Below, piece after piece: positions 7,056 through 32,922 of a stretch of 64,000 nucleotides of DNA. Within the stretch, counting starts at the first letter, position 1. Each line of letters starts with the position of its first letter. The notes under the pieces are model-generated. The model saw only the letters and a list, made by a program, of their open reading frames with translations, searched no databases and had not been told where the DNA came from. Source of the stretch: a virus; the IMG/VR virus record IMGVR_UViG_3300042484_001385, positions 4,836 to 68,835 of that record, one strand, 5' to 3'. Position numbers and translations under genes: made by a program.

Positions 7056-7081
7056 AGTCCTGGGCATGACTAAAACTGCCT
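7056..7081 (+). ncRNA. Compact H-type pseudoknot motif, copy after subtilisin stop
   Basis: agtc/gact stem; loop ctgggcat pairs with downstream tgcc(t); member of a 7-copy covarying family. Confidence 0.6.
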
Positions 7082-7085
7082 TCAA

Positions 7086-7158
7086 TGCCCTATAACTCAG
7101 TTGGTAGAGTGCCGAACTGTTAATTCGGATGTCCCTGGATCGAGGCCAGGTGGGGCAG
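7086..7158 (+). tRNA. tRNA-Asn (GTT)
   Basis: Acceptor TGCCCTA/TGGGGCA; anticodon arm CCGAA-CTGTTAA-TTCGG; T arm CCTGG-ATCGAGG-CCAGG with atypical loop; no encoded CCA. Confidence 0.85.
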
Positions 7159-7199
7159 CGTGATATAATAAGATTGTCATACCTATAAGGAGGAATAAC

Positions 7200-7847
7200 A
7201 TGGCAGCAAAAGGTAGTTTAGAAGCAATCATTGAGGTTGCAAAGAAAGAAGTGGGCACAATTGAAGGCCCTAAAGATAACGAAACAAAGTACGGTGCATG
7301 GATTAAGGTTAATTTCCAGCCATGGTGCCAATCATTTGTTTCTTGGGCAGCATTTACTGCTGGAGTAAAGTCATTCCCTAAGTCTGCATCAACAGTAGCA
7401 GCAGCAGATTGGTTTAAGAAGGCTGAGCGTTGGTCAGATGCTCGTAACGATGATCCACAAGCAGGAGACTGGATCTATTTTGATTTTCCAGAAGATGGAG
7501 TAAATCGTATTTCACATGTTGGGCTTTGCATTAAGAATAATGGCGATGGAACAATTCAAGTTATCGAAGGAAATACATCTGGAACCGCAAAGGGAGATCA
7601 GCGCAATGGTGGAATGTGTGTTGAAAAAACTCGTGGCTATGTAAAAAATAACAAGAAGAAGTTGGTTAATGCTGTTGTTGGTTGGGGTCGTCCAGTTTAC
7701 ACTGGTGAAGAAAATGCTCCACTACTAAATAAGTTAGCAGCAACACCAACACCTGCTAAGCCAACTGCAGCACCAAAAGAAATTAAGCCTGTAGTAAATA
7801 AACCAGCAGGTCGCAGTGGCGGAGGAAAAGGTTCAGTAGCACTATAA
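7200..7847 (+). CDS. CHAP-domain endolysin/amidase
   Basis: PWCQSFVSW, GDWIYFDF, SHVGL and IEGNT motifs. Confidence 0.85.
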   Translation: MAAKGSLEAIIEVAKKEVGTIEGPKDNETKYGAWIKVNFQPWCQSFVSWAAFTAGVKSFPKSASTVAAADWFKKAERWSDARNDDPQAGDWIYFDFPEDGVNRISHVGLCIKNNGDGTIQVIEGNTSGTAKGDQRNGGMCVEKTRGYVKNNKKKLVNAVVGWGRPVYTGEENAPLLNKLAATPTPAKPTAAPKEIKPVVNKPAGRSGGGKGSVAL

Positions 7848-8065
7848 TGGAATCAAAAAAGAGAAGCACGTACAAAACATTTACATGGCCAGCAGTTCAC
7901 ATTGGATTTGTTGGTACTTTAGTCTATTTTTTTGAAAAGGCTATTACTGGCGAAGCCCATTGGGAGTACGCTGGAACCTTTGCAATTGTCTATACACTCT
8001 GTGAGATGTTAGGATTTTTCTTACATGAAAGAGCATGGAACAAATTTGGAAAGGAGATCAAGTAA
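7847..8065 (+). CDS. Small membrane protein (DUF2061-like)
   Basis: KRS..KTFTW start and HERAWNK end, with two TM segments. Confidence 0.6.
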   Translation: MESKKRSTYKTFTWPAVHIGFVGTLVYFFEKAITGEAHWEYAGTFAIVYTLCEMLGFFLHERAWNKFGKEIK

Positions 8066-8175
8066 TGCGTATTAAAATAATTAGAGCAGTAGTAAAATTA
8101 CTTGGATATGAGTGGGGTGGAGATAAATTAAATGCCCCAGTTTGGACCGTAAAAGAAAAGAAAAAATCTAAGTAA

Positions 8176-8361
8176 ATGGCATTATACGAATATGACTGCA
8201 TGCCTTGTGGTCAGCGATATACAAAAGAAAGATCAATTAAAGAAAACGATCCAGGGTATGCTTGTGAAACTTGCAATCTACCGCTGGTTCGTGTATACTC
8301 TAATGTAGGAGCAGTATTCAACGGTAGTGGATTTTATTCCACTGATAACAGAAAGCGGTAG
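8176..8361 (+). CDS. FmdB-family zinc-ribbon protein
   Basis: YEYDC..CG..C..C..LVRVYS..FNGSGFYSTD. Confidence 0.8.
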   Translation: MALYEYDCMPCGQRYTKERSIKENDPGYACETCNLPLVRVYSNVGAVFNGSGFYSTDNRKR

Positions 8362-8365
8362 TATA

Positions 8366-8590
8366 ATGTTTACAATGATTAAAGATGAAGTAAAGCAAGA
8401 ATGGCAACTATCCCCAGCGGATCGTTGCGATAGATGCAATGCTGAGGCATTGGTTAAGGTTACAGGTATAAGTGGAGAACTTTTATTTTGTGGTCACCAC
8501 TACAATAAGATTATGGATAAACAAGAAAGTTATAAAAAGATGATGTCTTTTGCGCTTACAATTCTTGATGAGCGAGAAAAACTAGCATAA
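8366..8590 (+). CDS. Small zinc-binding protein of actinobacterial type
   Basis: DRCDRC.AEA..LLFCGHH..LDERE motif. Confidence 0.65.
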   Translation: MFTMIKDEVKQEWQLSPADRCDRCNAEALVKVTGISGELLFCGHHYNKIMDKQESYKKMMSFALTILDEREKLA

Positions 8591-8593
8591 ATA

Positions 8594-9433
8594 GTGAAGT
8601 TCCACTACATGTGGAGAGGCGAGCCATTAAACTCAAAAAGACTTAGGGACCTCTCTTCTAAACTAGAAAATTCTGGGTATTACTCAGTTCTGCTAACCTT
8701 TCATTCAGAAAGTCCAGACTATTTAATAAAATCAGCAGCCGCTTTAATCCCAGGGAATAAATTAAAATATATGATTGCCCTAAGACCATACCACATGAGC
8801 CCTCAGTTTTGTGCAATGGTTACTGAAGGATATAATCAAATAGATAGTAATAGGTTAATATTTAACTGGATTGCTGGAGATTTTCATAACAGAGATGACG
8901 AGCCAAGACAGGTTGACGTATTTGGAAAAACAGAGTCAATTGATCATATAGTTAAAAGAACTGTATTCTTAAGAGATTTTGTTAAACAGTATAATTCTTT
9001 TAATATTGTATCTAAAAAACCAGAAATGGTATTTAGCGGTTTTTCTGATTATACTTTAGAGACTGTAAAAATTTTTAATGGCATATCTTTATGTATGATA
9101 GATGATTATAGGAAAAATATAGACAAATTTGATAAAATAGATAACAGAATGGTCTGTGTTAATCCTATTATCCTAAATTCAAACAAACAGATAGACGAGT
9201 ATAAAACTACAATATCTTTAATTAATCCAAGGTCGTTGTATACTACAATTATAGGAGACAGGGATACTGTAAAGCAGAAACTTCTTAGACTAAAAGATGA
9301 AGGAATAACAGATGTTCTTTTAGATACAAATAGGCCAGAATCTTTTGGAATTGAGAACGAAGCAAGCAATACAAATGATATACTAGTTAATGAACTAGTT
9401 AGAGAAATATCTAAGGAGAAAAGCAATGTATGA
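8594..9433 (+). CDS. Luciferase-like (LLM/SsuD-fold) flavin-dependent protein, divergent
   Basis: LE..GYYSVLL, LKYMIALRPY.MSPQ..A, NRLIFNWIAG and IIGD..TVKQKL..L..EGITDVLL. Confidence 0.6.
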   Translation: MKFHYMWRGEPLNSKRLRDLSSKLENSGYYSVLLTFHSESPDYLIKSAAALIPGNKLKYMIALRPYHMSPQFCAMVTEGYNQIDSNRLIFNWIAGDFHNRDDEPRQVDVFGKTESIDHIVKRTVFLRDFVKQYNSFNIVSKKPEMVFSGFSDYTLETVKIFNGISLCMIDDYRKNIDKFDKIDNRMVCVNPIILNSNKQIDEYKTTISLINPRSLYTTIIGDRDTVKQKLLRLKDEGITDVLLDTNRPESFGIENEASNTNDILVNELVREISKEKSNV

Positions 9434-9833
9434 ATACTATGTAAGAAAAGTAGAGAATGTAGTAGATGGAGATACCATAGATGTTCTTATTGATTTAGGG
9501 TTTGATATTCTGTTTGCATCCCGTGTAAGACTGGCTGGTATTGATACCCCTGAGTCCCGTACTAAGGACCTTGCTGAGAAGGCTTTGGGCTTAGAGGCTA
9601 AAGAATACCTAAAGAAGTCTCTAAAGGACGCCAAGTCCGTTGTAATCAAGACTGAAAAGATGGACTCATCTGAAAAGTATGGTCGCATTTTAGGCTGGGT
9701 CTATGTAGATGGCAACACAGTATCACTTAACGACATGATGATCAATGATGGTTATGCATGGGGATACCTTGGAGATACTAAAGTCAAGGACTTTAATGCA
9801 CTTGCAAAGGCAAGAAAAAAGTCTGGTAAATAA
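9426..9833 (+). CDS. Thermonuclease (SNase family)
   Basis: VVDGDTID, RVRLAGIDTPES, EKYGRILG and GYAW.Y motifs. Confidence 0.9.
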   Translation: MYEYYVRKVENVVDGDTIDVLIDLGFDILFASRVRLAGIDTPESRTKDLAEKALGLEAKEYLKKSLKDAKSVVIKTEKMDSSEKYGRILGWVYVDGNTVSLNDMMINDGYAWGYLGDTKVKDFNALAKARKKSGK

Positions 9834-9834
9834 T

Positions 9835-10059
9835 ATGGGGCTTCAGGAAGAAGCAATGCTTGAACATCTCATGCTTCAAGGGGCTGTTGAATTCCAGGGT
9901 ATTGATGAAATAACTGGAGAGATGATGTATACCATTACAGAAAAAATGAAAGAAGTTAGTCCAGGTATATATGAAGAATTAAAGGATCAGTACGAGCATC
10001 ATATGTTTCAACTGATTGATCAAGGCCCTACCAGAATGACTTGGAGGGTCCGTACGTGA
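9835..10059 (+). CDS. Hypothetical protein (paralog of next gene)
   Basis: L.LQGAVEF.GID..TGE..Y..TEK similar to next ORF. Confidence 0.65.
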   Translation: MGLQEEAMLEHLMLQGAVEFQGIDEITGEMMYTITEKMKEVSPGIYEELKDQYEHHMFQLIDQGPTRMTWRVRT

Positions 10060-10394
10060 ACTTTAAAGATGAAGATGATGCAATAGATCAGTTAATCTTG
10101 TCTGGTGCTTTAGAGGTTGCTGGAATAGACATAAATACAGGAGAGCCAATATATAATTTTACAGAAAAATTAATAGATATAAGTCCAGAGTTGCATAAAG
10201 AAGTTTCTTTATATTTTTCTCGTGAAACTATGTCGTTGTGGAGTCATGGGTTTTTGGACATGGATGTGACTGAAAAAAATCCTATAGTAACTCTTACGCC
10301 AAAAGCATTAGATGATATAGAGGTATCTAAACTAAGCAAAGAATCTCAGGCTACGTTGAGGGAAATAATAAGAGTTATCCTTTCAGATAAGTAG
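10056..10394 (+). CDS. Hypothetical protein
   Basis: GTG start overlapping previous stop; LILSGALEVAGID..TGEPIYNFTEK. Confidence 0.65.
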   Translation: MNFKDEDDAIDQLILSGALEVAGIDINTGEPIYNFTEKLIDISPELHKEVSLYFSRETMSLWSHGFLDMDVTEKNPIVTLTPKALDDIEVSKLSKESQATLREIIRVILSDK

Positions 10395-10412
10395 TATAAT
10401 TGTTTTGGAGAC

Positions 10413-10838
10413 ATGATGGAATATTTTTTAGGATCTGCGATCACCTTGATTGCTATGTTCATTACAACAAGGCTTGCAGTTCCACGCATAAAAAAAACAA
10501 AACATCTACCATTTAGGTATAGTCAAAGCCACATACATATGCTTGTAATGCCTTTAATGCCAGAACTAAAATACCGTAAGAAAAGAATGATTACTCAGTC
10601 AAGCAAGCATGATGAAAAAATTAATATAAAAGTAATAATATTAGAAAATAAAGCATATTTTGTAAAAGATGGAGGGTTTTATTGTGCAGATGTTGATGGC
10701 CATTCAGTAGATAGTCAGAATGCAACCCTAGTTGACACAATAGGTATGGATAAGGTACAATTAGATAAGATGCTGTTTATAATGGATCAACTTAGAGAAG
10801 GGAAAACTAATGATAGTGGGAATACAGGGAACAAGTAG
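10413..10838 (+). CDS. Hypothetical protein with N-terminal TM segment
   Basis: ORF with promoter tagtataat and RBS ggag. Confidence 0.65.
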   Translation: MMEYFLGSAITLIAMFITTRLAVPRIKKTKHLPFRYSQSHIHMLVMPLMPELKYRKKRMITQSSKHDEKINIKVIILENKAYFVKDGGFYCADVDGHSVDSQNATLVDTIGMDKVQLDKMLFIMDQLREGKTNDSGNTGNK

Positions 10839-11160
10839 TTTTGATGACTACCAGGTTTTTCTTAGAGCCATGGCAGTCACAATGTCTTCTTTAAAAGAGG
10901 ATGATCAGTACTTCTATGTTTATTCTGCAGGACCAGCAAACATTAATGCAATGGTTATGGAGTTTGCAAATCTTTCAGAACGAGGGCTAAAGGCTCGTGG
11001 TAAAAGTATTAAGTATAAGCCAGTACCTCCTTCATGGATTACAGAAAATATTTTAGATATAAATTACTTTGCTTTTTTAAGTAAAGAAAAAGAACAGGTA
11101 TCAAAACTTGTCGATGAAGCAAAACAAAATAATGTCGAATACGGCATTTTCCGATACTAA
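10810..11160 (+). CDS. Possible SLOG/YspA-like protein
   Basis: MIVGIQGTSSFDDY start resembles the SLOG G.R.F.DY motif; weak. Confidence 0.45.
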   Translation: MIVGIQGTSSFDDYQVFLRAMAVTMSSLKEDDQYFYVYSAGPANINAMVMEFANLSERGLKARGKSIKYKPVPPSWITENILDINYFAFLSKEKEQVSKLVDEAKQNNVEYGIFRY

Positions 11161-11174
11161 CAGAAAGAATAAAA

Positions 11175-11384
11175 ATGCAAATCAAATCATTAGAACAAAT
11201 GGAAAAAATTGTTAATAGCAACAAGTCTTTAGTTTGGGATGGATGGACTGTAGTCAATTCTTATCCTTCCGAAAAAGGAAGAATAGATCAGAATGGAGCA
11301 TTTGTTAATGGCAAGTGGCATTTACAGCGTCGTTTTGTACCTTCTAAAAACGGATGGGACATACCAGACAAGTTTGTGAGTTAA
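11175..11384 (+). CDS. Hypothetical protein
   Basis: ORF in operon, Trp-rich. Confidence 0.6.
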   Translation: MQIKSLEQMEKIVNSNKSLVWDGWTVVNSYPSEKGRIDQNGAFVNGKWHLQRRFVPSKNGWDIPDKFVS

Positions 11385-11385
11385 C

Positions 11386-11670
11386 ATGCCAAAAGATAAA
11401 TGGAAAGACGATGCTGTATGCTTAGACTATGATACAAATTTATTTTTTGAAAAGTATGAAGATGATGAACTACTAAGACCAGCAATAGATAAACTTTGCT
11501 CTATGTGTCCAGTATCAAAAATGTGTTTTGCTGTTGGAGTTTCACAAAAAGAGTGGGGTATTTGGGGTGGAGTTTACCTTGAAAACGGGCAGATATCTAA
11601 AGAGTTCTCTAAGCATAAGTCTAAAACAGACTGGGCAAACACTTGGCAAAGACTAACAACGGAGCAATAA
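11386..11670 (+). CDS. whiB: WhiB-family transcription factor
   Basis: W...A.C..D..LFF; C..CPV..C; WGIWGG motif. Confidence 0.9.
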   Translation: MPKDKWKDDAVCLDYDTNLFFEKYEDDELLRPAIDKLCSMCPVSKMCFAVGVSQKEWGIWGGVYLENGQISKEFSKHKSKTDWANTWQRLTTEQ

Positions 11671-11671
11671 A

Positions 11672-11908
11672 ATGTATACAGATTCAATGAGAAGAGCGTT
11701 TCATTCTTTAAAAGGTCCAAAAGGTTTTCATCTTCAGGTAATTGATCATGATAATTTTTTAACAGTGAAAGCAAGTGAAAAACAGTTTATGAGTCTTTCT
11801 GGAGAAGAAAGAAAAGAGGCTGTAGAATATATGATTCGTACAAAAAAAGCACTTGAAGATAATGGGGCAATTGTTTTATTAGTTAGAGAAGGTGGGGCAG
11901 AACTATGA
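11672..11908 (+). CDS. Hypothetical protein
   Basis: ORF tightly coupled to whiB. Confidence 0.65.
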   Translation: MYTDSMRRAFHSLKGPKGFHLQVIDHDNFLTVKASEKQFMSLSGEERKEAVEYMIRTKKALEDNGAIVLLVREGGAEL

Positions 11909-12330
11909 TCGAGTTTATATCATTTTTAATTTTTATATTTTTATTTTTTGGATTAGTAGTTAAAAATATTATATCTAGTGTTAAACTATCTTCACTTTAT
12001 AAACAAGTACTTCAATTACACATAGACAAAAATATACTTTCTGAAAAACTTTTTGAAGCATCTGCCTTAAACTTATTAAAAAACGAAAAAGAATCAGATG
12101 CTTTTTTAAAATTTATTTCAGATTCTAGGGACTGGGCATATCAATATATAGATGATGTGCAAGAGGGTATTAATAAATTTATTAAGGAAGTTGAGCCAGA
12201 AATAGCATATTTTGATGAATATGGTGTTGCCAGTTCTGCTTATCCACATTACCATTCAATGAAAAAAATTTCTTTAGCATACAAAGAACTAAAAACTCTA
12301 TTACCTGAAGACTATGATAAAATAGAGTAA
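11905..12330 (+). CDS. Hypothetical membrane-anchored protein
   Basis: N-terminal TM segment; ATGA overlap. Confidence 0.65.
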   Translation: MIEFISFLIFIFLFFGLVVKNIISSVKLSSLYKQVLQLHIDKNILSEKLFEASALNLLKNEKESDAFLKFISDSRDWAYQYIDDVQEGINKFIKEVEPEIAYFDEYGVASSAYPHYHSMKKISLAYKELKTLLPEDYDKIE

Positions 12331-12472
12331 TGATAGTCCTTAAAAGCACGAAGAATCTTAACTTTTCAATATGCGAAGAAGAACTTTGTCAAGAAGAAAG
12401 TACTCAGATTTGGGCAAATTCTGAAAGTCGTATTGTAGATCTATGCGATATGCACTATGCAAAGGCAAAAGA

Positions 12473-13354
12473 ATGAAGTTTTATTATTTTGGTGGAGTAA
12501 TGGGAGACACAGAAAACATAAAGTCTCCGTCAAACTTAAACAGCCATAATTTTTCTGGAGTAATGTTTACCCATGATATCCCAGAAGGAGACATGTTTGT
12601 TAAAACAGCAAAAGATATAAAGCATGGCGAAAATATTAAATACTTAGTTGCAATTCGTCCATACACAATATCTCCCCAGTATCTTTCTATGATAAACAGA
12701 TCTATAAATAAAATAGACAAAGATAGGCTTCAAATTAACTTAATTTCTGGATACATAAAAGATCATGAAGATGGTGTAGGTGGTGTTGTTGGAGATGTTA
12801 ACGACAAATCAAGCGCCCTTGACAGATCAAACTACATGATAGAATTTCTTAAAGTATTAAACGAAATGGATCAAGACAAAGAATCACCAGGATACTGGAA
12901 AGACCCAAACCATAAAAACAAATTAGATGTTTATGTATCAACAACAAATAGTTATGTATTTGAAGCAGTAAAAAAATATGGACATAAAATTATTTTGCCA
13001 TACCACATATATGCTCGTGGTGGATGGTCTGATTTCTTAAAAGATTCTTCTATATTAATCCCCCTTGAGTTGGACGGCACAGAAGTAATGATTGCAATTA
13101 CCCCTATTATTAGAAAAACAGAAGAAGAACTTGACCTACTAACAGACCATGTAGTTAGACCAGTATGGAGAAAGGGAGAGATTCCACAACCTGTTTTGGA
13201 TGCTGCCTACTTTACATATGAACAGTTTGATGATCTTGTTAGAACTCTTGAAAGCAGAGGAATAAACCATATGCTTATTAATGCCGTACCATCAGAAGAA
13301 GTAAATGTAATAGTTCCATTTATTAAACAATATGTAGAGGAAAATAAAAGATGA
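12473..13354 (+). CDS. Second luciferase-like (LLM-fold) protein, divergent
   Basis: IKYLVAIRPYTISPQYLSM..DRLQINLISG shared with 8594-9433. Confidence 0.6.
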   Translation: MKFYYFGGVMGDTENIKSPSNLNSHNFSGVMFTHDIPEGDMFVKTAKDIKHGENIKYLVAIRPYTISPQYLSMINRSINKIDKDRLQINLISGYIKDHEDGVGGVVGDVNDKSSALDRSNYMIEFLKVLNEMDQDKESPGYWKDPNHKNKLDVYVSTTNSYVFEAVKKYGHKIILPYHIYARGGWSDFLKDSSILIPLELDGTEVMIAITPIIRKTEEELDLLTDHVVRPVWRKGEIPQPVLDAAYFTYEQFDDLVRTLESRGINHMLINAVPSEEVNVIVPFIKQYVEENKR

Positions 13355-13509
13355 AAGATGTTATACTATCAATACTAACAGGTTTTGGATGTGGTGTAGT
13401 TTTTGCTGCATTCAAATTGCCAGTACCAGCACCACCAGTTTTTGCGGGAGTCGCAGGAATTATTGGTTTGTGGATTGGCTTTACAGTACTAACAAAAATA
13501 ATATCCTAG
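13351..13509 (+). CDS. XapX-domain (DUF1427) small membrane protein
   Basis: Translated by hand: MKDVILSILTGFGCGVVFAAFKLPVPAPPVFAGVAGIIGLWIG; LPVPAPP motif. Confidence 0.75.
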   Translation: MKDVILSILTGFGCGVVFAAFKLPVPAPPVFAGVAGIIGLWIGFTVLTKIIS

Positions 13510-13519
13510 GAGGAAAATT

Positions 13520-13855: not shown

Positions 13856-13872
13856 AGTAGTATAATTTATAC

Positions 13873-13986
13873 TATTCCGCTATAAGACTTTAAAAGGTTT
13901 TGCAACGGATGCTCTTATGAGAAGAGAGTTAGCAGGAGTCGAACCTTCGTGGCTAATAGACCTGAGCAGTCGTCTATAAACTGCTC
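13873..13986 (+). ncRNA. Candidate ~115-nt structured small RNA ending in the pseudoknot motif
   Basis: TATAAT at 13861; non-coding; stems ctctt/aagag, ttagc/gctaa, atagac/gtctat plus gagcag/ctgctc pseudoknot. Confidence 0.5.
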
Positions 13987-14008
13987 ATTTCCTATGCTAT
14001 AATATTAG

Positions 14009-14060
14009 TACCTGCCCAAATGGGGGGTAAATTAACTTATTCGCTTGAAAGGGGAATAAT
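14009..14060 (+). promoter_or_regulatory. ROSE-like RNA thermometer candidate in hsp20 leader
   Basis: ttattcgctt-gaaa-ggggaataa hairpin hides the RBS; contains UCGCU with a bulged G. Confidence 0.5.
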
Positions 14061-14465: not shown

Positions 14466-14477
14466 TACAATATAAAT

Positions 14478-26206: not shown

Positions 26207-26209
26207 ATA

Positions 26210-26416: not shown

Positions 26417-26868
26417 TAGTCAAAGTACCCTTCTGCCCATAGGCCCTGGAGAAAGTCTTGTGCCATTAGAATACCCTCTTTATCACCAGGGTCAGTTATA
26501 TACTTATATGCATTATGAACGGCATTGCTCATCTTATCTAAATCATCAATAGTGTAGCCTAACATTACTCCCCCCAATATTTTACAATAGTATTCATGGT
26601 AGTATGGAGATGGCAATCACAAGGGTCTCCCCCCATGTTTTCATCAAATTCAAAATGAGAATAGTTGTCCTCATAGATTTCATTAACGAGTTCGGATATT
26701 GTGTATGGTCTGTATGTTTGAGTCATATACTAATTATGACAGAATTTCAGGGAAATGTCAAGTCTATCGTAATCGGAAAATCTGGGAAATGTTATTTGAT
26801 CATCTTAATAAGTATTATCAAAAATGTCAATTCGGACATATTGGACATCTAGAATTGCCTAGGCGGTG

Positions 26869-26942
26869 CGAAGTGTACGGGACTTGAACCCGTGATCTCT
26901 ACCGTGACAGGGTAGCGCATTAACCAACTATGCTAACACTCC
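26869..26942 (-). tRNA. tRNA-Asp (GTC)
   Basis: Reverse complement GGAGTGT..CTACC-CTGTCAC-GGTAG..GGTTCAAGTCC..ACACTTC-G. Confidence 0.88.
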
Positions 26943-26946
26943 ATGC

Positions 26947-26974
26947 GAGCAGTTTTAAATCTTGCTCAGGATTT
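26947..26974 (-). ncRNA. Pseudoknot motif copy after DUF932 stop
   Basis: rc aaatc-ctgagcaa-gattt-aaaac-tgctc. Confidence 0.6.
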
Positions 26975-26979
26975 ATTTA

Positions 26980-27993
26980 TTATGCGTTAGTTAATTCACG
27001 CACAATTTTTAGCAAACGATTTTTCTCTGCGTTAATTGCAGGGTCAAATCCGCTTGCGCTTGCAAGGATAGATTCGTTAGAACCACCACGAGCAGAACGA
27101 TACCAATCAAGGCGTTCAGTTAGTGCATTGAAAGCACCCCAAGCGTTACCAGCAATCATGCCGTTAAATTCGCCTGTGTAAATGTCGTTGATTGTATCAA
27201 CTTTATTTTCCCACTTCTTGAAAGCACCCTTAGCATCTGCTTCAGGCTTTGGGTATGCAGCAAGAATGATGTCATTAAACATTTTAGCAGACACTTCTTT
27301 TTCAATCATAGCCTTAGCCATGAGGTCAAAAGAGTCCATGTATTTATGAGCCATGCCAAGAGTCTCACGAGCAACGGCAACCTTACCGCTTGCTGTCTGT
27401 GTGTGACGAATCTTGAATGATTGCTTAACGCCATTTTTCTTTTTGGTAGTGTTTAGCGCAAGGTTGAGAGTGTTAGCGCATACAACACGAACAGGTGTAA
27501 TGCTTGCCTGAATAGCGATTGAGCCGTCATGTGATGTGTTGATAAGTAAATAAGTATTTACCTTATCTGCAACACCATTAGGGTCAAGAATTGTTTCACG
27601 CTCTAATGCTAATGCACCGAATACAACACGACCACCCTTGATTGAGCCAGCCGTTTCCCAACGACCACCACCATCAAGAATGTTATCACCAAATGAGAAT
27701 AAATCCTCGTTTTGCATAACATGATAACGCTCACCAACGACACCCAAAATGTCTGTCTGTGAATTATCTGTAGGGTTAGTACGCAATACATACTGATAGT
27801 TTTTATCGCTTGTGAGATGTGTAGGGGTTTCCAAATCTTCCAGACGAACATTCCAATTAGAAAGGTTAGCCAAATCTAACATTTCTTTTGTGGTTTTTTC
27901 TTCTGTAAATACAGTACCCAATCCATGCCAAGCAGGTTCTCTAAATGATGCAAAACTTGCTACGCCATTTTGAGTTTCGAGTTCATGTGCCAT
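26980..27993 (-). CDS. DUF932 / phage-plasmid-like protein
   Basis: MAHELE..REPAWHGLG, ETAGS..GGR, LLINTSHDGS, TPVRVVCANTL, IRHT and AWGAFNALTE. Confidence 0.85.
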   Translation of the reverse strand: MAHELETQNGVASFASFREPAWHGLGTVFTEEKTTKEMLDLANLSNWNVRLEDLETPTHLTSDKNYQYVLRTNPTDNSQTDILGVVGERYHVMQNEDLFSFGDNILDGGGRWETAGSIKGGRVVFGALALERETILDPNGVADKVNTYLLINTSHDGSIAIQASITPVRVVCANTLNLALNTTKKKNGVKQSFKIRHTQTASGKVAVARETLGMAHKYMDSFDLMAKAMIEKEVSAKMFNDIILAAYPKPEADAKGAFKKWENKVDTINDIYTGEFNGMIAGNAWGAFNALTERLDWYRSARGGSNESILASASGFDPAINAEKNRLLKIVRELTNA

Positions 27994-28185
27994 GAGTTAT
28001 TTTTCCTTTTCTGTTGTTGTTTATACTAAGTTTAGCAGATAGGTCTGACAAATGCAAATCGGGATAGTTAAACATGGTCAAATTGGACATTTTTTAGGGT
28101 GATCTTAATCACAGATCGTAAATCGGTGTGTTAACTTGACAAAGTTATCCACAGGCTGCCTAGAAAATTTTTGCGGGGAATAGAG

Positions 28186-28212
28186 GAGCAGTTTTAAAAC
28201 ATGCTCAGGTTT
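28186..28212 (-). ncRNA. Pseudoknot motif copy
   Basis: rc aaac-ctgagcat-gttt-taaaac-tgctc. Confidence 0.6.
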
Positions 28213-28230
28213 ATTATTAGTAGCCCCCTA

Positions 28231-28668
28231 CTAAACCTCTATGTTGTCAATACTGGAGGACAGATAAGAAATTGAGTCTGAATTATATTCAACTGAGTCA
28301 AAATCAATTTCGTGAATTATATTTTGTACTTCGTCATCATTACGTGCATTAACAGTTACAGAATACATAACAGTTACTTCGACTTCGAATTCTTTTGTTA
28401 ACTCAAAACCGCAGATGTCTGCAATCTCTTGTGCAGTGTCTTCTGATATGGTGCCGTCACTGATTTGTTCCAAGGTCCACTCATGCATTTCATTACGCAT
28501 ACGGGAGCGCTCTGCAGACTCACCATAAGAGCGTTGAGTTACTTTTTGAATGTGCTCTTCTAATTGCTGAATACGGTTCTTGTTTTCTACTAACTGAGTT
28601 TCTAAAAACTCTCGTGTCATGTATTGATTATCTGTTTTTACTACTGAAGGAATTTGTTGCTGGTCCAT
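28231..28668 (-). CDS. Hypothetical protein
   Basis: MDQQQIP start after RBS gaggt; ORF track extends into the promoter. Confidence 0.65.
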   Translation of the reverse strand: MDQQQIPSVVKTDNQYMTREFLETQLVENKNRIQQLEEHIQKVTQRSYGESAERSRMRNEMHEWTLEQISDGTISEDTAQEIADICGFELTKEFEVEVTVMYSVTVNARNDDEVQNIIHEIDFDSVEYNSDSISYLSSSIDNIEV

Positions 28669-28732
28669 GAGGGCTACCTCTTTCTGTTTGTTGGTTAGTT
28701 TAATTATAGGGTATGGCACTGACAAATGTCAA

Positions 28733-29230
28733 TTACCAAGATGATGAATAATAGAATGATAACTTATCTACTTCAGGCAAGGCAAAGATACGCTTCAACT
28801 GAGTAATAGTATTTTCAATGTCTCTCCAATACCATTCGTCGATATCTGTGCTACCAAAGAAGAATCCACCCTGTGGCTGGAGCAGGGAGGGGTCCCTGTT
28901 TTCAAATGAGTGCTCGCATATGATTAGCAACTCTTTTAGTTTATCTTGTGAGACATAGTAATCACCGCAGTCATCCTCACCGTTTTGGATTTCTCTTACG
29001 AACCAAGAATGTATCTGATTAGCCTTGCGCCAATAGGCACAGGTAACCGATACCTCTGCTCCATAGATATCTGTAGCGACATCTGTTAGTTGTGTTATTT
29101 CCATTAGGTCGTTGAATTTAGGATATACGGCTTCAGGTGATGAATAAGATAATTCATCATTTGACTGTAGTGCTTGCCAATTAATCTTGGCTAAGTGTTT
29201 TCTTGCGTTGAGATACATATCTAATCCCAT
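28733..29230 (-). CDS. Hypothetical phage protein
   Basis: MGLDMYL, YWRKANQIHSWF, GFFFGS..DEWY and YYSSSW motifs recurrent in phages. Confidence 0.75.
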   Translation of the reverse strand: MGLDMYLNARKHLAKINWQALQSNDELSYSSPEAVYPKFNDLMEITQLTDVATDIYGAEVSVTCAYWRKANQIHSWFVREIQNGEDDCGDYYVSQDKLKELLIICEHSFENRDPSLLQPQGGFFFGSTDIDEWYWRDIENTITQLKRIFALPEVDKLSFYYSSSW

Positions 29231-29342
29231 TGGGGCTCCTTATTGTTTGTTTATTTTAATTATACTGTAGTGGTCTGACAAATTTGGCCCACTACCCCAG
29301 GGGATCTGGCTAACCATAGCGTGAAACGCAGGGGAGAGGGTT

Positions 29343-29369
29343 AAGCAGTTTAGCCTCATGCTTAGGAGG
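29343..29369 (-). ncRNA. Pseudoknot motif copy with compensatory changes
   Basis: rc cctc-ctaagcat-gagg-ctaaac-tgctt. Confidence 0.65.
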
Positions 29370-29378
29370 ATTATCTAA

Positions 29379-29801
29379 TTACAGATAACGAGCAACCGCA
29401 TTATAGGTGCTTGTATTAACTACTTCCTCATCTGTCATCTTGAGGATACGAATTGCGTTTTCGATTTCCTCTTTCATTTCACGATAAGTATGAGAACCCA
29501 TTTGCTCAAAGTCACGCTCAGGCTCTTTTGGTAGTTCTGATTGTGTAACTGTTAGGTCAAAGTCAATGTTAAGACTATTGTTCCATGAGCGATAGTTAGT
29601 GCGAAAGTTCTCTGCCTTCTTGATGTTTGCTACGGCATAAGCAGAAAGTTCCTTCTGCCACTTTTCTCTTGCCTTTGTGTATTTTGCTTCGTTTGCTTCT
29701 TGATTAGCATAGTTAGTGTTAAGTTCTGCTAACTTAGTCTCAAGTGCCTTGATTACCTTTGGTGTTGCTATCTTTACTGAGATTGCTTTTCCTCTTGCCA
29801 T
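29379..29801 (-). CDS. Hypothetical protein
   Basis: ORF with RBS aagga. Confidence 0.7.
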   Translation of the reverse strand: MARGKAISVKIATPKVIKALETKLAELNTNYANQEANEAKYTKAREKWQKELSAYAVANIKKAENFRTNYRSWNNSLNIDFDLTVTQSELPKEPERDFEQMGSHTYREMKEEIENAIRILKMTDEEVVNTSTYNAVARYL

Positions 29802-29835
29802 GTGGGTCTATTCCTTTACTGTTAGGGGGTGAGTT

Positions 29836-29862
29836 GAGCAGTTTGTATTCATGCTCAGGAAT
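29836..29862 (-). ncRNA. Pseudoknot motif copy
   Basis: rc attc-ctgagcat-gaat-acaaac-tgctc. Confidence 0.6.
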
Positions 29863-29873
29863 TAGTAATTAGA

Positions 29874-30038
29874 TTACTTAGCCGTCCAAGTTGTGTAACG
29901 GGCTGAACCATTAACATCTAACTTTACACGAACATTACCATTTGCTTGTGGCTCAATGGCTACGATTGTTCCTGTGACCTTTGACTTCTGTGTTGTGTAG
30001 AGGTCGCCTACCTTGTATGTTGCTGTTGCTACTGACAT
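29874..30038 (-). CDS. Small beta-barrel-like hypothetical protein (54 aa)
   Basis: Translated by hand: MSVATATYKVGDLYTTQKSKVTGTIVAIE...; RBS aaggag. Confidence 0.65.
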   Translation of the reverse strand: MSVATATYKVGDLYTTQKSKVTGTIVAIEPQANGNVRVKLDVNGSARYTTWTAK

Positions 30039-30356
30039 TTATTTCTCCTTTGTTGTTGTTGTATGTATTAAGTATAACATTTCCTACTGACATTTTTCAA
30101 GTTGATACCTGAATAATCTCACTATGTGGAATTGTTATTTGGTTATACCTAAGTATAGCAAAAAATGTCATAAATCTCAAATTTTGGGGGGGTTTCTGGG
30201 TGTGTCCTTAATCACATCTTAAAGGCGTGACGAAATTTGACAAATAAAAAATTTTGCGCTAGGCGATCTAGGCGCTCCGTTTCACAACGGTGCAGAAAAA
30301 ATAGAAATTAAAAATATTGCAGTTAAAAATAAAATAATTACTTCTTGCATTTCATC

Positions 30357-31079
30357 TCATTTCTTAGTCGCAGAAAAAATTATGTCACTCTTAGAGTATA
30401 CACAAAGTGAGCAAGAAACGCAAGCGCTTCCATTTGTTGAGATAAGTGGAATTTGTTTATTATTCTCAGGACACTTAGCAGCAGGACGGCCAATCATTTC
30501 TTTTACATCGGCTTGACCAATAGCAAAATTCTTAGCAAGGTATGCCATGCGTACGCCACTATTAATTTTTAGGTCAACGGCGGTTTTTACATTCTCACTG
30601 TCTGCAGAGAAATACAATGATAGATTAGTTACATCCTTAAGAATAAGGGCTGCACTCTTCACACGTGTATATACCCAAAATTGAATATCAGGGTGCTTGT
30701 CAATAACTACTTTCCACGCATATGCATAAGTATCGTTAAAGAAGTCTCCGTCCCAATGAATACGGAATAGCATAGGGGCCTCACGCTTTACACAATCAGC
30801 CTTGAAATCAGAAATCATTTCATTAAGTAGGCGGACCATGGTTTCGCCGTCTGCGTCTTTAAGCAGATCCCAATTGTGCAATAGGTTTTTCTTTACTGTC
30901 GGGAATACCTTTTCCAATTTGCCTGCGTAGCAAACACTCTCGCAGACAGACGTTGCGCCAGGACATGAATAAGCCTTTCCTGCGGGTAGTCCGAAGGTGT
31001 TAGCGATACTTGCTTGTTTTCCATTTGGTGTGACAAGATTAGCAACCTTTCTATCTTTAGAGCGTAGTAGTTTAGTCAT
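30357..31079 (-). CDS. GP88-like Cys-containing phage protein
   Basis: FGLPAG..CPGA..C..CYA, FRIHWDGDF, FWVYTR, C..C..C..C. Confidence 0.7.
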   Translation of the reverse strand: MTKLLRSKDRKVANLVTPNGKQASIANTFGLPAGKAYSCPGATSVCESVCYAGKLEKVFPTVKKNLLHNWDLLKDADGETMVRLLNEMISDFKADCVKREAPMLFRIHWDGDFFNDTYAYAWKVVIDKHPDIQFWVYTRVKSAALILKDVTNLSLYFSADSENVKTAVDLKINSGVRMAYLAKNFAIGQADVKEMIGRPAAKCPENNKQIPLISTNGSACVSCSLCVYSKSDIIFSATKK

Positions 31080-31493
31080 TAGTTATAACTCTCCTTGCAG
31101 TTAGCGCAAATGGAATTAAGTTTACAGTAGCATGACTTAGCGCTTGGGCGAATCATGTCTGTCTCATAGTAGTCATCATAGAAGTCAATGGAATCAAATG
31201 TCATGGGGGCACGACCTTTCTTAGTAGTTATTTTTTAAGTATAGCAGTTCGGACTGACATTTTTTACCCTTGCGAGAATAAGCCTTTTTAGACTTGACAG
31301 GGGTAGCCGCATTAGATCGGCGCAATTCCATAAGCCTGCGTAATTCTTCGGGAGTTTTCTTTGTAGTCATAAACTAATCTTAGCATACATGTGGATAAAA
31401 TGTCAAATCTTAAACTGTGATCAATCTCACATCGACGGGCTAGGTAAAATGCCTAGGCGATTTTGTGCAGGGAAGCACACAAAATCACTTTTA

Positions 31494-31733
31494 CTATTCT
31501 TCTTCAATAAAAACATACAACGGAATTAAATCAGTATAAGCATACTGAGTAACTTCCTTTTCACCAAATTCATTTTGTGTTTGTATGTCATAGTTATCGC
31601 CTGTTGAATCGCTTTCAATAAAAATTACTTCAACAATGTCATTGTCAATTTTAATTAAATCACCAAGCATTATTTGGTCTGGTGTTAAATTATCTGCGTT
31701 GATCAATTCCATGCTTACAATTGTATCAGACAT
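31494..31733 (-). CDS. Hypothetical protein
   Basis: ORF in operon. Confidence 0.6.
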   Translation of the reverse strand: MSDTIVSMELINADNLTPDQIMLGDLIKIDNDIVEVIFIESDSTGDNYDIQTQNEFGEKEVTQYAYTDLIPLYVFIEEE

Positions 31734-32003
31734 TTAGTCCTCCTCTGGTAACCAAAAAGATAAGTGGTGTTGTTCAATTACTGCCCACGCTGGCGCATGG
31801 CTCATGCCCTTATAGAATACTCCATCAGGCATAGCAATAAATCGGTCATAGTCCTCATCATAGTATGCATCAATAGCATCAATGCAAGGTTGTACCATGC
31901 TTAGCGGTACGGGTGGATAGTGATTACCCTGTAAGTGATAAGCAATCTGAGTTTCTAAGTCTAATACTGAGTCCTGTATTCCTAACGCTGTTATGCTTCC
32001 CAT
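31734..32003 (-). CDS. Hypothetical protein
   Basis: HLQGNHYPPVP motif. Confidence 0.65.
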   Translation of the reverse strand: MGSITALGIQDSVLDLETQIAYHLQGNHYPPVPLSMVQPCIDAIDAYYDEDYDRFIAMPDGVFYKGMSHAPAWAVIEQHHLSFWLPEED

Positions 32004-32221
32004 TATCGTGTTACCACCATTCCTGTTTTGTAAAAAGTTTTTGTGTGCATTTTGCCTGAAGGTTCAGACAAGTTAATTGTTGAGTATTCTTTAGCAAGTC
32101 CATGGTCAATAAACTTTTGATAACTTTCAACGGCAGATAAAGCGTCACTATAACGCCCTACCCAAGTAGTGGAAGCATCTGAGTCATAGGTACAAGTAAC
32201 TGAGTATAGGTATTCGTTCAT
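32003..32221 (-). CDS. Hypothetical protein
   Basis: TAATG overlaps with neighbours. Confidence 0.6.
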   Translation of the reverse strand: MNEYLYSVTCTYDSDASTTWVGRYSDALSAVESYQKFIDHGLAKEYSTINLSEPSGKMHTKTFYKTGMVVTR

Positions 32222-32412
32222 TAGTTATTCTCCTTATAGTTTTCGTTCATGATACTTTCAGCGTACCATGCACAGTATTCATTTTCAAGCGACACGCCTT
32301 TAGCGCATGAGCAAAACTCTGAGTCAAAGTCCTCGCCACCATTACCAAAAAAGATGACACCCTCATCATAGCAATCTGAGCAATCAAGCAAAAAGTCAAT
32401 TAAGTTTCCCAT
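32221..32412 (-). CDS. Hypothetical Cys-containing protein
   Basis: C..C..C.C. Confidence 0.55.
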   Translation of the reverse strand: MGNLIDFLLDCSDCYDEGVIFFGNGGEDFDSEFCSCAKGVSLENEYCAWYAESIMNENYKENN

Positions 32413-32416
32413 TTAT

Positions 32417-32629
32417 TTATTCTCCAACCCGTACTGATAGAATACGATAAGTGTCCTTTAGATTAAATACTGAAGGATAGTGTGGGCGAACCTGAACACG
32501 ATAACTTTCTAACCCTGAGCCATAAAAGACATCAGACTTTTCTGCATCTATAATTTCGCCTGTTAAAGTGCGTGAGCGATAAGTTTTTCCTACAAGTAGG
32601 CTTTCTATTGTATAGACATTTGCTGACAT
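32417..32629 (-). CDS. Hypothetical protein
   Basis: MSANVY after RBS gagg; first gene of a TGTCAG-promoter unit. Confidence 0.6.
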   Translation of the reverse strand: MSANVYTIESLLVGKTYRSRTLTGEIIDAEKSDVFYGSGLESYRVQVRPHYPSVFNLKDTYRILSVRVGE

Positions 32630-32894
32630 GAGCAACCTCTTTCTTTGTTGTTATTTATTTATCCTACCATTAGGGTCTGACAAACTTTTGTTATTTATTT
32701 TTTCTTACTATGTAAGTTTAGCCTGTTACTGATAATTTATCAACCTACTGCCGAGTAGTCTTAAATAATGAGACGCTCAACCCATGTGATAAAACTCACA
32801 AAATTTCGGGCGTGTCGTAAACAACTTCTTAAATGACCTGTGGATAACTTGGTCTGACCTGTGGAAAACGGCCTAGGCTACCTAGGAAAAATTT

Positions 32895-32922
32895 GAGCAG
32901 TTTTAAATCATGCTCAGGATTT
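32895..32922 (-). ncRNA. Pseudoknot motif copy
   Basis: rc aaatc-ctgagcat-gattt-aaaac-tgctc. Confidence 0.6.

Follow-up and report, generated by a model that had tools for sequence, protein, structure and literature searches.

Seven copies of a small structured motif lie behind phage genes

The window (the whole 64,000-nt stretch of DNA analysed, part of a 68,835-base viral contig) contains seven copies of a short structured motif, all at the positions reported in the initial annotation. They are dispersed, one per intergenic region, 0.5-7 kb apart and each behind a different gene. Stop distances in the following list are the bases between the stop codon and the closing C of stem 1.

7056-7081, plus strand: copy 1; stem 1 AGUC/GACU; loop CU + GGGCA + U; linker AAAAC; 3' strand UGCCU, with one G-U pair; TAA of a 298-aa ORF 9 nt upstream; tRNA-Asn starting 4 nt downstream
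13956-13986, plus strand: copy 2; stem 1 AUAGAC/GUCUAU; loop CU + GAGCA + GUC; linker AAAC; 3' strand UGCUC; Hsp20 gene 75 nt downstream
26947-26974, minus strand: copy 3; stem 1 AAAUC/GAUUU; loop and 3' strand GAGCA/UGCUC; 9 nt past the TAA (tandem TAA TAA) of the DUF932 gene at 26980-27993, a 337-aa ORF; tRNA-Asp starting 4 nt downstream
28186-28212, minus strand: copy 4; stem 1 AAAC/GUUU; GAGCA/UGCUC; TAG TAG of a 164-aa ORF 21 nt upstream
29343-29369, minus strand: copy 5; stem 1 CCUC/GAGG; compensated loop helix AAGCA/UGCUU; TAA of a 140-aa ORF 12 nt upstream
29836-29862, minus strand: copy 6; stem 1 AUUC/GAAU; GAGCA/UGCUC; TAA of a 54-aa ORF 14 nt upstream
32895-32922, minus strand: copy 7; stem 1 AAAUC/GAUUU; GAGCA/UGCUC; TAA of a 49-aa ORF 8 nt upstream

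Six copies had been described as lying soon after a stop codon, and a same-strand ORF does end 8-21 nt upstream of each. The exception is copy 2: the sequence before it has only TAA/TAG triplets and a 20-aa ORF that extends into the copy, and one must go back 100 nt to reach the end of an ORF of 60 aa or more. This copy was found again, with identical flanks, in seven IMG/VR loci. The two copies said to directly precede tRNAs are copies 1 and 3, and ARAGORN called no tRNA at any of the seven copies themselves. Downstream of the window copies, at variable distance, are a tRNA, the Hsp20 gene, DUF932 or uncharacterised ORFs. The ATG of the 140-aa ORF that ends before copy 5 follows copy 6 after 34 nt, and a CCUAGG hairpin with a U-run follows copy 7.

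A fixed-spacing pattern gave five matches in the window against 0.00 expected (100 shuffles). No eighth copy was detected in the window or in the whole contig; a relaxed regular-expression match at 2480-2498 (minus strand) was dismissed as lying inside an ORF and misfitting the motif. A covariance model of the motif missed copy 1 at E<=1.

The motif folds as a compact pseudoknot

Judged from its pattern of base changes, the motif is almost certainly a compact H-type RNA pseudoknot of ~27 nt. Stem 1 has 4-6 bp with an invariant closing C-G pair, loop 1 is CU, stem 2 has 5 bp (consensus GAGCA/UGCUC), a single base forms the junction and an A-rich loop 3 ends in AAAC. The initial annotation had proposed this fold, with compensatory changes in both helices, and several hundred related copies strongly support it. 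Within the window, the seven copies have six different stem 1 sequences, every one of them paired, and the pairing of the loop with the 3' end varies as well (GAGCA/UGCUC five times, AAGCA/UGCUU in copy 5, and GGGCA/UGCCU, with its G-U pair, in copy 1).

Stem 1 columns 6-19 were paired in 104/104 sequences and columns 7-18 in 103/104; the 6-19 pair occurs as each of the four Watson-Crick types. The covariation score of this stem was 0.356, compared with 0.087 in shuffles, and was reached by 0 of 500. Stem 2 occurs in at least nine compensated variants, with both-sided changes at all five pairs and 87% of cells paired. A descriptor blind to the stem 2 bases returned 30 non-consensus matches, 24 of them fully paired, which 0/2000 shuffles achieved. 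Over the whole structure, 90.5% of cells were paired, versus 27-47% with the 3' partners slid. G-U/U-G wobbles in stem 2 exceed A-C/C-A mismatches by 29 to 5, so it is the sense-strand RNA that folds.

Hardly any variation affects the CU, closing C-G, inner A-U and AAAC. These conserved bases cluster at the helix junction, and the outer pairs of either helix change without evident constraint, as in a small tertiary fold that is complete in itself. The junction base itself is variable (T 103, A 68, C 21 and G 4 among 196 instances), as is the outer pair of stem 2 (G-C 23, A-U 10, G-U 7 and U-A 2; n=49). Stem 1 is often just four AU-rich pairs, and by nearest-neighbour energy the nested part is predicted to fold at only -4.7 to -6.5 kcal/mol.

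The motif is widespread in phages and bacteria

The Rfam search suggested in the initial annotation returned no match for the motif, either at gathering score over the whole window or at E<=10 over 26800-33000, which holds five copies (Rfam 15). Beyond that annotation, we found the motif across many phage types, in mobile elements and in many bacterial phyla. It is present in at least 120 IMG/VR contigs, in the cyanophages S-EIV1, S-CRM01 and S-RIM4, in one mycobacteriophage, one T7-like Paracoccus phage and one gut phage, and in at least 118 bacterial contigs spanning many phyla. Hosts include cyanobacteria, actinobacteria, proteobacteria and gut bacteria. S-EIV1 carries several copies along its early operons, as in the window, and three isolates carry one copy each.

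Placement follows stop codons

The motif shares its strand with the closest ORF upstream in 134 cases versus 7. A stop codon lies 8-13 nt before the closing C in 58 of 144 unique contexts; 37 matches in bacterial contigs have a stop at this distance, and six phage isolates with very different hosts share the spacing. Two further features extend the earlier description. First, there is a sharp floor to the spacing: between the stop and the first paired base lie 4 nt or more in 92/93 cases, most often 5-6 nt (55/93 at 4-9 nt, and a long tail of 38/93 above 9 nt). Relative to the stop, the motif occurs in all three frames. Second, the stop can be inside the knot, as in 22/121 bacterial matches, where the UGA of a 20-aa ORF lies within it. 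The 20-aa ORFs constitute a candidate conserved micro-protein without family assignment, and some of these units have a terminator hairpin right after the knot.

The motif sits between two close co-oriented genes in several phages, and a same-strand tRNA starts 4-14 nt past it in 17/146 cases. The knot of S-CRM01 is embedded in a tRNA cluster, directly behind tRNA 3' ends (spacers 0-4 nt) and with no ORF upstream. DUF932 accounts for 16 of 81 upstream ORFs, and ArdA, RadC, DUF3768 and DUF2958 were each found once in a set of 44 upstream genes. The motif has no constant companion gene, and the genes upstream and around it are of many kinds. An A follows the 3' strand in 68%, then a C in 48%, with G in only 1%; ACCA is the commonest tetramer there (14/143). 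Positions +3 to +9 past the knot are only 38-45% T, and terminator-like sites occur within 70 nt of 2/102 phage and 13/120 bacterial instances. The initial annotation had placed the copies at RNA 3' ends; the transcript data consist of contigs from relatives of ~93-95% identity, and these run across several copies.

The motif differs from known RNA systems

The initial annotation had likened the motif to the preQ1-I aptamer (RF00522). The likeness in topology stands, as both have a short hairpin whose loop pairs with sequence past an A-rich tail, but it is limited to topology because the Rfam model was unmatched. The motif has a 5-pair stem 2 and a single variable junction base. We rejected a preQ1-I riboswitch since RF00522 matched neither the window at gathering score nor 26800-33000 at E<=10, and the motif sits 8-21 nt past stops, not in the 5' leader of queuosine or transport genes.

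Luteovirus-type frameshift knots are alike in size (~27-28 nt), in their 2-nt loop 1, single junction base and A-rich loop along stem 1, and in a gap of ~5-9 nt to the A-site codon. The present motif differs in lying behind a stop codon instead of a slippery heptamer, and in occurring in DNA phages and bacteria. A -1 programmed frameshift signal was rejected on the stops that replace slippery sites, the placement in all three frames, and the lack of a frame running on beyond the knot, as seen from the tRNAs 4 nt past copies 1 and 3 and the tandem stops at copies 3 and 4. An intrinsic (Rho-independent) terminator was rejected on the low T content at +3 to +9 and the few terminator-like sites.

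T4 intercistronic C(UUCG)G hairpins and E. coli REP elements are short, repeated, sense-oriented structures located after stops in polycistronic RNA. They resemble the motif in this position and perhaps in a sequence conserved for intrinsic stability; the motif differs in being a pseudoknot, in being common to many phyla and phage types, in its sharp spacing limit and in sometimes containing the stop. The acceptor-arm knot of tymovirus tRNA-like structures, together with small RNase P substrates, shares the H-type fold, an A (often ACC or ACCA) after the 3' strand, a 9-11 bp stack and a location beside tRNA genes. The motif, by contrast, is RNA-internal, lacks a T-arm, has ACCA in ~10% of cases and keeps its conserved bases at the junction.

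Prophage hammerhead ribozymes are reported to occur in several copies, intergenic and in one orientation, beside genes such as ardA (PMC3088659). Hammerheads and STAXI pseudoknot repeats are structured intergenic RNAs of mobile-element operons near genes of the anti-restriction, SSB and integrase type (PMC3088659, PMC2864571). The motif is like them as a multicopy structured RNA between genes of mobile-element operons, but it is far shorter, its copies are scattered singly instead of in tandem, and its placement is linked to stop codons. Rfam models of hammerhead, twister, pistol, hatchet and HDV-like ribozymes were unmatched. STAXI was likewise rejected, with no Rfam match and dispersed copies instead of tandem repeats, and a type III toxin-antitoxin RNA (ToxI-like) is set apart by the layout of 0.5-7 kb intervals and the diverse neighbours.

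A possible boundary element of the upstream cistron

As a tentative explanation, possible though short of probable, we propose that the knot sets the 3' limit of the upstream cistron and shields it. Transcribed within the mRNA, it would act in cis as a boundary marker, folding once the terminating ribosome has left. The folded knot would then halt 3'-to-5' exonucleases short of the stop codon. These could enter at a downstream cut, for example by RNase P at the next tRNA, or at the transcript end; after RNase P cleavage at a following tRNA, the upstream mRNA would carry the knot at its 3' end. The knot may also insulate neighbouring cistrons, tRNAs and start sites from one another. Under this proposal, it would be the intrinsic stability of the fold, as in conserved tetraloops, that keeps the sequence alike in unrelated hosts, and the range from cyanobacterial to gut-bacterial hosts speaks against a host-specific partner. 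As canonical terminators are rare behind the phage motifs, the knot would be the sole structure near the gene end.

Several observations count against a barrier. Given the weak nearest-neighbour energy, a barrier could be strong only through putative tertiary contacts, and by analogy with known frameshift knots the A-rich loop 3 along stem 1 would be expected to strengthen the 5' (ribosome) side instead of the exonuclease side. A barrier would be redundant where the stop is inside the knot and a terminator hairpin follows, as in some 20-aa ORF units, and at the bacterial instances with terminator-like sites. The S-CRM01 knots follow tRNA 3' ends, with no ORF upstream. A passive barrier has no need of an invariant CU and AAAC, and the transcript data are contigs of relatives that cross several copies.

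The loop 3 geometry and the spacing suggest instead that the knot could sit at the mRNA entry channel with the stop in the A site, pausing or blocking the terminating ribosome. It might thereby prevent read-through, sliding or re-initiation into a following tRNA, start site or terminator; in a variant, translation of the upstream ORF would switch the knot on or off as a translation sensor. The distance from frameshift site to stimulatory knot has the same geometry as the stop-to-motif spacer, with its 4-nt floor and mode of 5-6 nt. A 2-nt loop 1, 1-nt junction and A-rich loop 3 along stem 1 form the architecture of knots that resist the ribosomal helicase, and the motif has it. The ribosome is a universal partner, consistent with equal spacing across many host phyla, and the UGA within the bacterial knots also fits. 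We nevertheless consider such an action on the ribosome unlikely: the spacers have a long tail (38/93 above 9 nt), at least two registers occur (stop before or inside the knot), the S-CRM01 copies are behind tRNAs and not ORFs, and with tandem stops at copies 3 and 4 read-through is unlikely to be a problem there. We know of no established benefit of pausing at a stop codon.

The tRNA neighbourhood could also reflect another universal partner. The knot might mimic a tRNA acceptor arm and act as a punctuation mark for tRNA-processing enzymes, with RNase P cutting between loop 1 and stem 2, and RNase Z or exonucleases acting after the base following stem 2. Polycistronic phage RNA would thus be cut into units, as by tRNAs in mitochondria. 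The 9-11 bp of stacked helices, the A and C after the 3' strand, the ACCA tetramer, the tRNAs starting 4-14 nt downstream, the S-CRM01 cluster and the host range are consistent with this. A U before the helix and a G-C first pair are preferred RNase P determinants, and most copies have both; the U precedes stem 2 in 192/196 instances, most of which were retrieved with a pattern fixing that U. Such mimicry is nonetheless quite unlikely, since conservation peaks at the helix junction whereas the enzymes read the outer end of stem 2, the outer pair varies, ACCA follows only about a tenth of the copies, there is no T-loop equivalent, and the predicted cut would hit the stop codon in the 20-aa ORF family.

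The near-invariant CU, closing C-G, inner A-U and AAAC, set between helix ends that vary, would also suit binding of a conserved protein or small ligand, such as RNA polymerase (in processive antitermination), ribosomal protein S1 or a mobile-element factor. Several copies along early operons (the window and S-EIV1) and the early or anti-restriction neighbours (DUF932, and single cases of ArdA, RadC, DUF3768 and DUF2958) agree with such a partner. We regard it as very unlikely, as no gene co-occurs and neighbours are diverse, three isolates have just a single copy, and a T7-like carrier phage would use its own polymerase. The aptamer option of the initial annotation is further weakened because the single junction base, the expected ligand-pocket site, varies, and because the motif follows genes instead of preceding them as riboswitches do.

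The genomic habit resembles that of gene-flanking prophage hammerheads, and ArdA is among the upstream genes here. That the knot is a very small self-cleaving RNA, or part of one, used in the same way is highly improbable: 27 nt is far under any known natural self-cleaving class, the Rfam ribozyme models were unmatched even at E<=10, and the unpaired conserved core is limited to CU, one base and AAAC. A DNA-level element (a protein-binding inverted repeat, gene-cassette recombination site or single-stranded DNA hairpin) is barely credible, despite the position at borders of small, variable genes and weak signs in relatives' RNA contigs of joints skipping segments with copies 3, 4, 6 and 7 (flanks 20-45 nt), given two interleaved covarying helices that a duplex binding site does not need, the excess of sense-strand wobbles, an orientation that follows genes, and the single-copy isolates.

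Implications

Alongside the boundary element, a broader interpretation is possible but doubtful. The minimal pseudoknot could be an undescribed, near-universal bacterial and phage signal read at translation termination, via the ribosome or as miniature tRNA-like punctuation, which cells would use in a conserved 20-aa micro-gene with a buried UGA stop and which mobile elements would have spread after early and anti-defence genes.

The motif is small enough to have slipped past RNA catalogues. As a compact, portable and host-independent module, it could be built into synthetic operons as an insulator or stabiliser. If our reading is true, a 27-nt fold joins the few structured motifs common to phages, to conjugative or integrated elements and to the chromosomes of many bacterial phyla. 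Its placement after and around stops offers a testable handle on how phages and mobile elements shape, punctuate and protect polycistronic early transcripts, and the same question stands for the ribozymes found in the same positions.

Seven copies of one pseudoknot in the window

We located exactly seven copies of a ~27-nt H-type RNA pseudoknot of a single architecture by direct reading and a regular-expression scan of the whole window, and they lie where the initial annotation had placed them. Scanning the whole 68,835-base contig revealed no eighth copy.

Copies of the pseudoknot in the window
7056-7081 (+), copy 1
13956-13986 (+), copy 2
26947-26974 (-), copy 3
28186-28212 (-), copy 4
29343-29369 (-), copy 5
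29836-29862 (-), copy 6
32895-32922 (-), copy 7

Each copy has a hairpin (stem 1) of 4-6 bp whose last pair is always C-G; we call the C, the last stem-1 base before the loop, the closing C. The loop consists of CU, a five-base segment and then a single base, or three bases in copy 2. After the stem's 3' arm come 0-2 bases, AAAC and a five-base strand complementary to the loop segment (stem 2). The fixed-spacing form of this layout matched five times in the window, against 0.00 expected from 100 dinucleotide-preserving shuffles. As initially annotated, stem 1 is variable yet always paired, with six sequences across the seven copies (7/7 paired), and the loop and 3' strand covary (GAGCA/UGCUC five times, AAGCA/UGCUU once, GGGCA/UGCCU once). 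The reported genomic setting also held: six copies follow the stop codon of a same-strand ORF, 8-21 nt from stop to closing C, and two precede tRNAs, with tRNA-Asn 4 nt past copy 1 and tRNA-Asp 4 nt past copy 3 (ARAGORN, Rfam). Copy 2 is preceded only by stop triplets and a 20-aa ORF. Folding of the 75-82 nt past copies 2, 4, 5 and 7 detected no significant structure (z-scores -1.0 to +0.2).

Several other sequence features were observed in the window. The octamer CCTGAGCA alone occurs 17 times (6.35 expected), and ten extra sites, including those at 3230, 22797, 33908, 34782, 37704, 42196 and 48860, have neither hairpin nor 3' partner. DnaA-box-like nonamers (TTATCCACA and its complement, plus the relative TTTTCCACA) lie in intergenic sequence downstream of copies 4 and 7, at ~28146-28154 (-), 32838-32846 (-) and 32861-32866 (-). 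A CCUAGG-UAG-CCUAGG hairpin followed by CCGUUUU is located at 32873-32887 (-), 8 nt past copy 7, and CCTAGGYA-like words also occur at 26856, 28157 and 31450. Just upstream of copy 2, the reverse complement of 13933-13950 resembles a tRNA T-arm (GGTTCGACTCC); ARAGORN predicted no tRNA there, and the segment may be a tRNA remnant.

Covariation supports both helices

An exact pattern scan of IMG/VR that allowed spacings of 4-14 nt returned at least 146 matches in at least 120 loci. Although this range was permitted, 103 of the 146 matches listed have a 7-nt spacing, and this shared spacing is not chance. Among 104 distinct sequences with the 7-nt spacing, the two stem-1 pairs adjoining the closing C-G were paired in 104/104 and 103/104, using all four Watson-Crick types. 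The stem-1 covariation score was 0.356 versus 0.087 for shuffled sequences (reached by 0/500 shuffles), and sliding the stem-1 partner reduced pairing from 91% to 27-39%.

Because the scan pattern fixed the loop helix, stem 2 was tested separately with a descriptor that ignored its ten bases. This yielded 104 unique matches, 74 consensus and 30 others. Stem 2 was fully paired in 24 of the 30 non-consensus matches (shuffles: mean 10.9, maximum 16, 0/2000 reaching 24). Compensated variants were AAGCA/UGCUU, GGGCA/UGCCC, GGACA/UGUCC, AGACA/UGUCU, GAGUA/UACUC, GGGUA/UACCC, GGCCA/UGGCC, AGCUA/UAGCU and AAAUA/UAUUU. In a 49-sequence set comprising 47 non-consensus descriptor matches (false positives included) and two consensus sequences, each of the five stem-2 pairs shows changes in both partners, and pairing holds in 87% of stem-2 cells.

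Across 290 unique instances in which any one mismatch was allowed, non-Watson-Crick positions of stem 2 were G-U or U-G in 29 cases versus A-C or C-A in 5. The folding strand is therefore the sense strand and the element is RNA. The same comparison at the outer pair of stem 1 (30 versus 22) was uninformative.

We also observed a variant class with the 3' strand GGCUC after AAAA instead of UGCUC after AAAC, which leaves four pairs and an A-G. One copy of this class is compensated (AAGCA with GGCUU).

Copies of the GGCUC class, by collected locus
L033, 3672-3705
L006, 11345-11378 and 12079-12100
L069, 4519-4552
L059, 1974-2007
L053, 2947-2968

Conserved bases cluster at the helix junction

Of 144 contexts, 92 have a 4-bp stem 1, 31 a 5-bp, 19 a 6-bp and 2 a 7-bp stem, and the A-rich loop 3, which ends in AAAC, is mostly 4-6 nt long. 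The CU, the closing C-G and AAAC are near invariant, an upper bound since most sequences were retrieved by patterns fixing them. Isolates retrieved independently of those patterns differ in the outer pairs of the two helices but keep the inner A-U and C-G pairs, the loop-1 C and AAAC; conserved bases thus cluster at the helix junction. The junction base, the single base between the helices, is T in 103, A in 68, C in 21 and G in 4. The base past the 3' strand is A in 68%, with which the loop-1 U could form a sixth pair, and the next nine positions are G-poor (1-16%). A third helix past the knot was considered and rejected, as the seeming palindromes proved to be where tRNA-Asp genes begin.

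The motif occurs in diverse phages and bacteria

The Rfam comparison proposed in the initial annotation found no Rfam 15 family matching the copies, either across the whole window at gathering score or in 26800-33000 at E<=10, and 19 bacterial loci gave no match at gathering score. When 20 kb of window sequence was compared with 50,697 phage records by megablast, no match emerged. Isolate carriers were found with a covariance model and BLAST of one copy.

Isolate phages carrying the motif
Synechococcus phage S-EIV1: seven copies at 25.9-43 kb, on one strand (counted by eye)
Freshwater cyanomyovirus S-CRM01: 3-5 copies, two directly past tRNA 3' ends
S-RIM4: one copy
Mycobacterium phage Labelle: one copy
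Paracoccus phage ParMal1 (Autographiviridae): one copy
Gut phage NatCom_3357: one copy

Syn9, S-PM2 and P-SSM2 gave only weak partial matches, and S-TIM5 none. In bacteria (one genome per prokaryote species), a stricter 18-base pattern identified at least 118 contigs with the motif; chance would yield an estimated ~17 (596 billion bases, both strands, equal base frequencies). At least three stem-1 pairs are formed in 112 of the 121 bacterial matches listed. Carriers are labelled Saccharibacteria, Aminicenantes, Lachnospiraceae, Anaerolineae, Actinomycetes, Desulfobacterota, cyanobacteria, Bacteroidota, Proteobacteria and others. Five Saccharibacteria contigs (L158, L193, L207, L225 and L242) share one copy with near-identical flanks, which in two of the five falls within a frame open for 150 aa or more; this may be a conserved gene incidentally holding the motif or a real embedded copy.

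The window has the look of a freshwater cyanophage fragment, with genes for Hsp20, a carbamoyltransferase, a 2OG-Fe(II) oxygenase, a class II ribonucleotide reductase, tail fibres and five tRNAs and a G+C content of 38%. Close relatives occur among freshwater metatranscriptome contigs: the best match, from a freshwater sample, shares 0.29 of words, and contigs are 90-99% alike to 26800-33000 (uncovered parts and short-flank joints were left out of the evidence). These contigs carry no molecule starts or ends and therefore have no bearing on 3' ends or cleavage. One contig that carries sequencing-adapter letters terminates at 32859 and another at 29235, which hints at RNA 3' ends and proves nothing.

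Copies follow stop codons on the same strand

Among the phage matches listed, the nearest upstream ORF is on the motif strand in 134 cases versus 7. In 58 of the 144 unique phage contexts listed, a stop precedes the closing C by 8-13 nt, a count that misses small genes because only ORFs of at least 50 aa were counted. The spacer from stop to first paired base measures 4 nt or more in 92/93 (one outlier, -2) and 4-9 nt in 55/93. The annotated CDS ends 9 nt from the closing C in Labelle, ParMal1 and NatCom_3357 alike, 6 nt in S-EIV1 and 13 nt in S-RIM4. Among the matches listed on bacterial contigs, 37 have a stop 8-13 nt before the closing C.

Downstream, the next start lies at widely varying distances, never closer than ~10 nt, with a peak at 20-30 nt (26 cases). 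Of the 146 instances listed, 17 have a same-strand tRNA beginning 4-14 nt downstream, and one more has a tRNA at 33 nt. Canonical terminators follow 2/102 phage and 13/120 bacterial instances. In S-CRM01, knots at 129620-129653 and 130334-130368 (L143:1502-1534 and L148) lie 0-4 nt past tRNA 3' ends within a tRNA cluster, with no ORF upstream.

Frameshifting, read-through and recoding were rejected: stops upstream of the knot are TAA (60), TAG (15) and TGA (6), each of the three frames occurs, and the stop is followed by tandem stops and tRNAs. A T4-type, MotA-like middle promoter acting through a TGCTY box was also rejected; TATAAT stands at a fitting distance in copy 2 only, and promoter-like sites in 26500-33500 were not above shuffles (30 versus 21.1, s.d. 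5.8).

The upstream genes are diverse, with DUF932 (phrog_1221) in 16 of 81 among the phage loci listed. Among the 44 upstream ORFs on bacterial contigs, DUF7249 appears six times, and ArdA, RadC, DUF3768, DUF2958 and a phage minor capsid protein each appear once. This is a set typical of early/anti-restriction regions of mobile elements. PMC3088659 describes hammerhead ribozymes flanking ardA in polycistronic RNAs of prophages, and these ribozymes are, like the motif, sited in early/anti-restriction regions. For the DUF932 gene upstream of copy 3 (26980-27993 (-)), the nearest relatives among isolates (~52% identity) come from Streptomyces, Mycobacterium and other actinophages rather than from cyanophages.

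A 20-aa ORF ends inside the knot

In 22 of the 121 bacterial matches listed (loci L159, L163, L186, L187, L201, L211, L265 and 15 others), the knot and the end of a 20-aa ORF overlap; this ORF is preceded by a Shine-Dalgarno sequence of its own and has the consensus M-K-R-F/Y-x-x-P-R-x-A/S-H-C-x-x-G-C-x-x-x-S. The loop-1 U and the first two stem-2 bases form its UGA stop in 20/22, and TAG lies just upstream in the other two. Codon positions 1, 2 and 3 show pairwise differences of 0.34, 0.28 and 0.55, as would be expected of a translated frame. Neighbours are ordinary chromosomal genes (a cytidylyltransferase-like gene in 8/70), and a terminator hairpin was seen by eye just downstream of some units. 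The peptides matched no Pfam or NCBIfam family; the unit has no Rfam family, with only terminator-like sub-threshold matches for one unit at E<=10 (Rfam 15). A long ORF ending at the in-knot UGA was rejected, as only 6/121 frames are open for at least 60 codons, none from the 20-aa family.

Possible roles of the motif

Any role must account for a junction-centred conserved fold whose carriers span many phyla and phage types, a close yet non-exclusive link to stops, a G-poor tail, and downstream partners that vary (tRNA, start codon, promoter-like sites, sometimes a terminator). We tentatively favour a putative cis-acting boundary element of the upstream cistron that would block 3' exonucleases. 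This preference is based on the strand rule, stop proximity with a minimum gap, nearby tRNAs, few phage terminators and the host range. The knot would refold behind the terminating ribosome and then halt 3' exonucleases, its sequence being kept for intrinsic stability; RNase P cutting at a downstream tRNA would leave it at the new 3' end. Against this boundary role stand the low nearest-neighbour stability of the knot, its redundancy with terminators in the 20-aa units, the S-CRM01 copies that follow tRNAs, and the A-rich loop, which would strengthen the ribosome-facing side.

Action of the knot on the terminating ribosome seems unlikely; the ribosome-facing loop and the stop spacing speak in its favour. 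We consider it somewhat less likely still that the knot mimics a tRNA acceptor for RNase P or RNase Z: tRNAs lie nearby, but the enzyme-read outer stem-2 pair and the following bases are less conserved than the junction. The knot could instead be a candidate protein, polymerase or ligand site, which we regard as improbable; the variable junction base weakens the aptamer idea. Self-cleavage is very improbable, and a DNA-level role, set against the G-U excess in stem 2, is the least probable of all.

The fold resembles that of luteoviral frameshift knots, and the preQ1-I likeness described in the initial annotation applies to topology and is limited to it. In genomic habit, the motif is like T4 intercistronic hairpins, REP elements, tRNA-like knots and prophage ribozymes. 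For tRNA-like structures its features are mixed; by testable membership criteria it belongs to none of the other families compared. Text searches of the literature turned up no description of the motif, and searching its 8-9-mers as text returned only unrelated primer lists. An unannotated entry may exist among the 10,006 candidate viral RNAs surveyed in PMC10690425. We file the motif as a new RNA family among gene-end structured elements, and it may possibly, though doubtfully, represent a new kind of termination-linked or punctuation signal.
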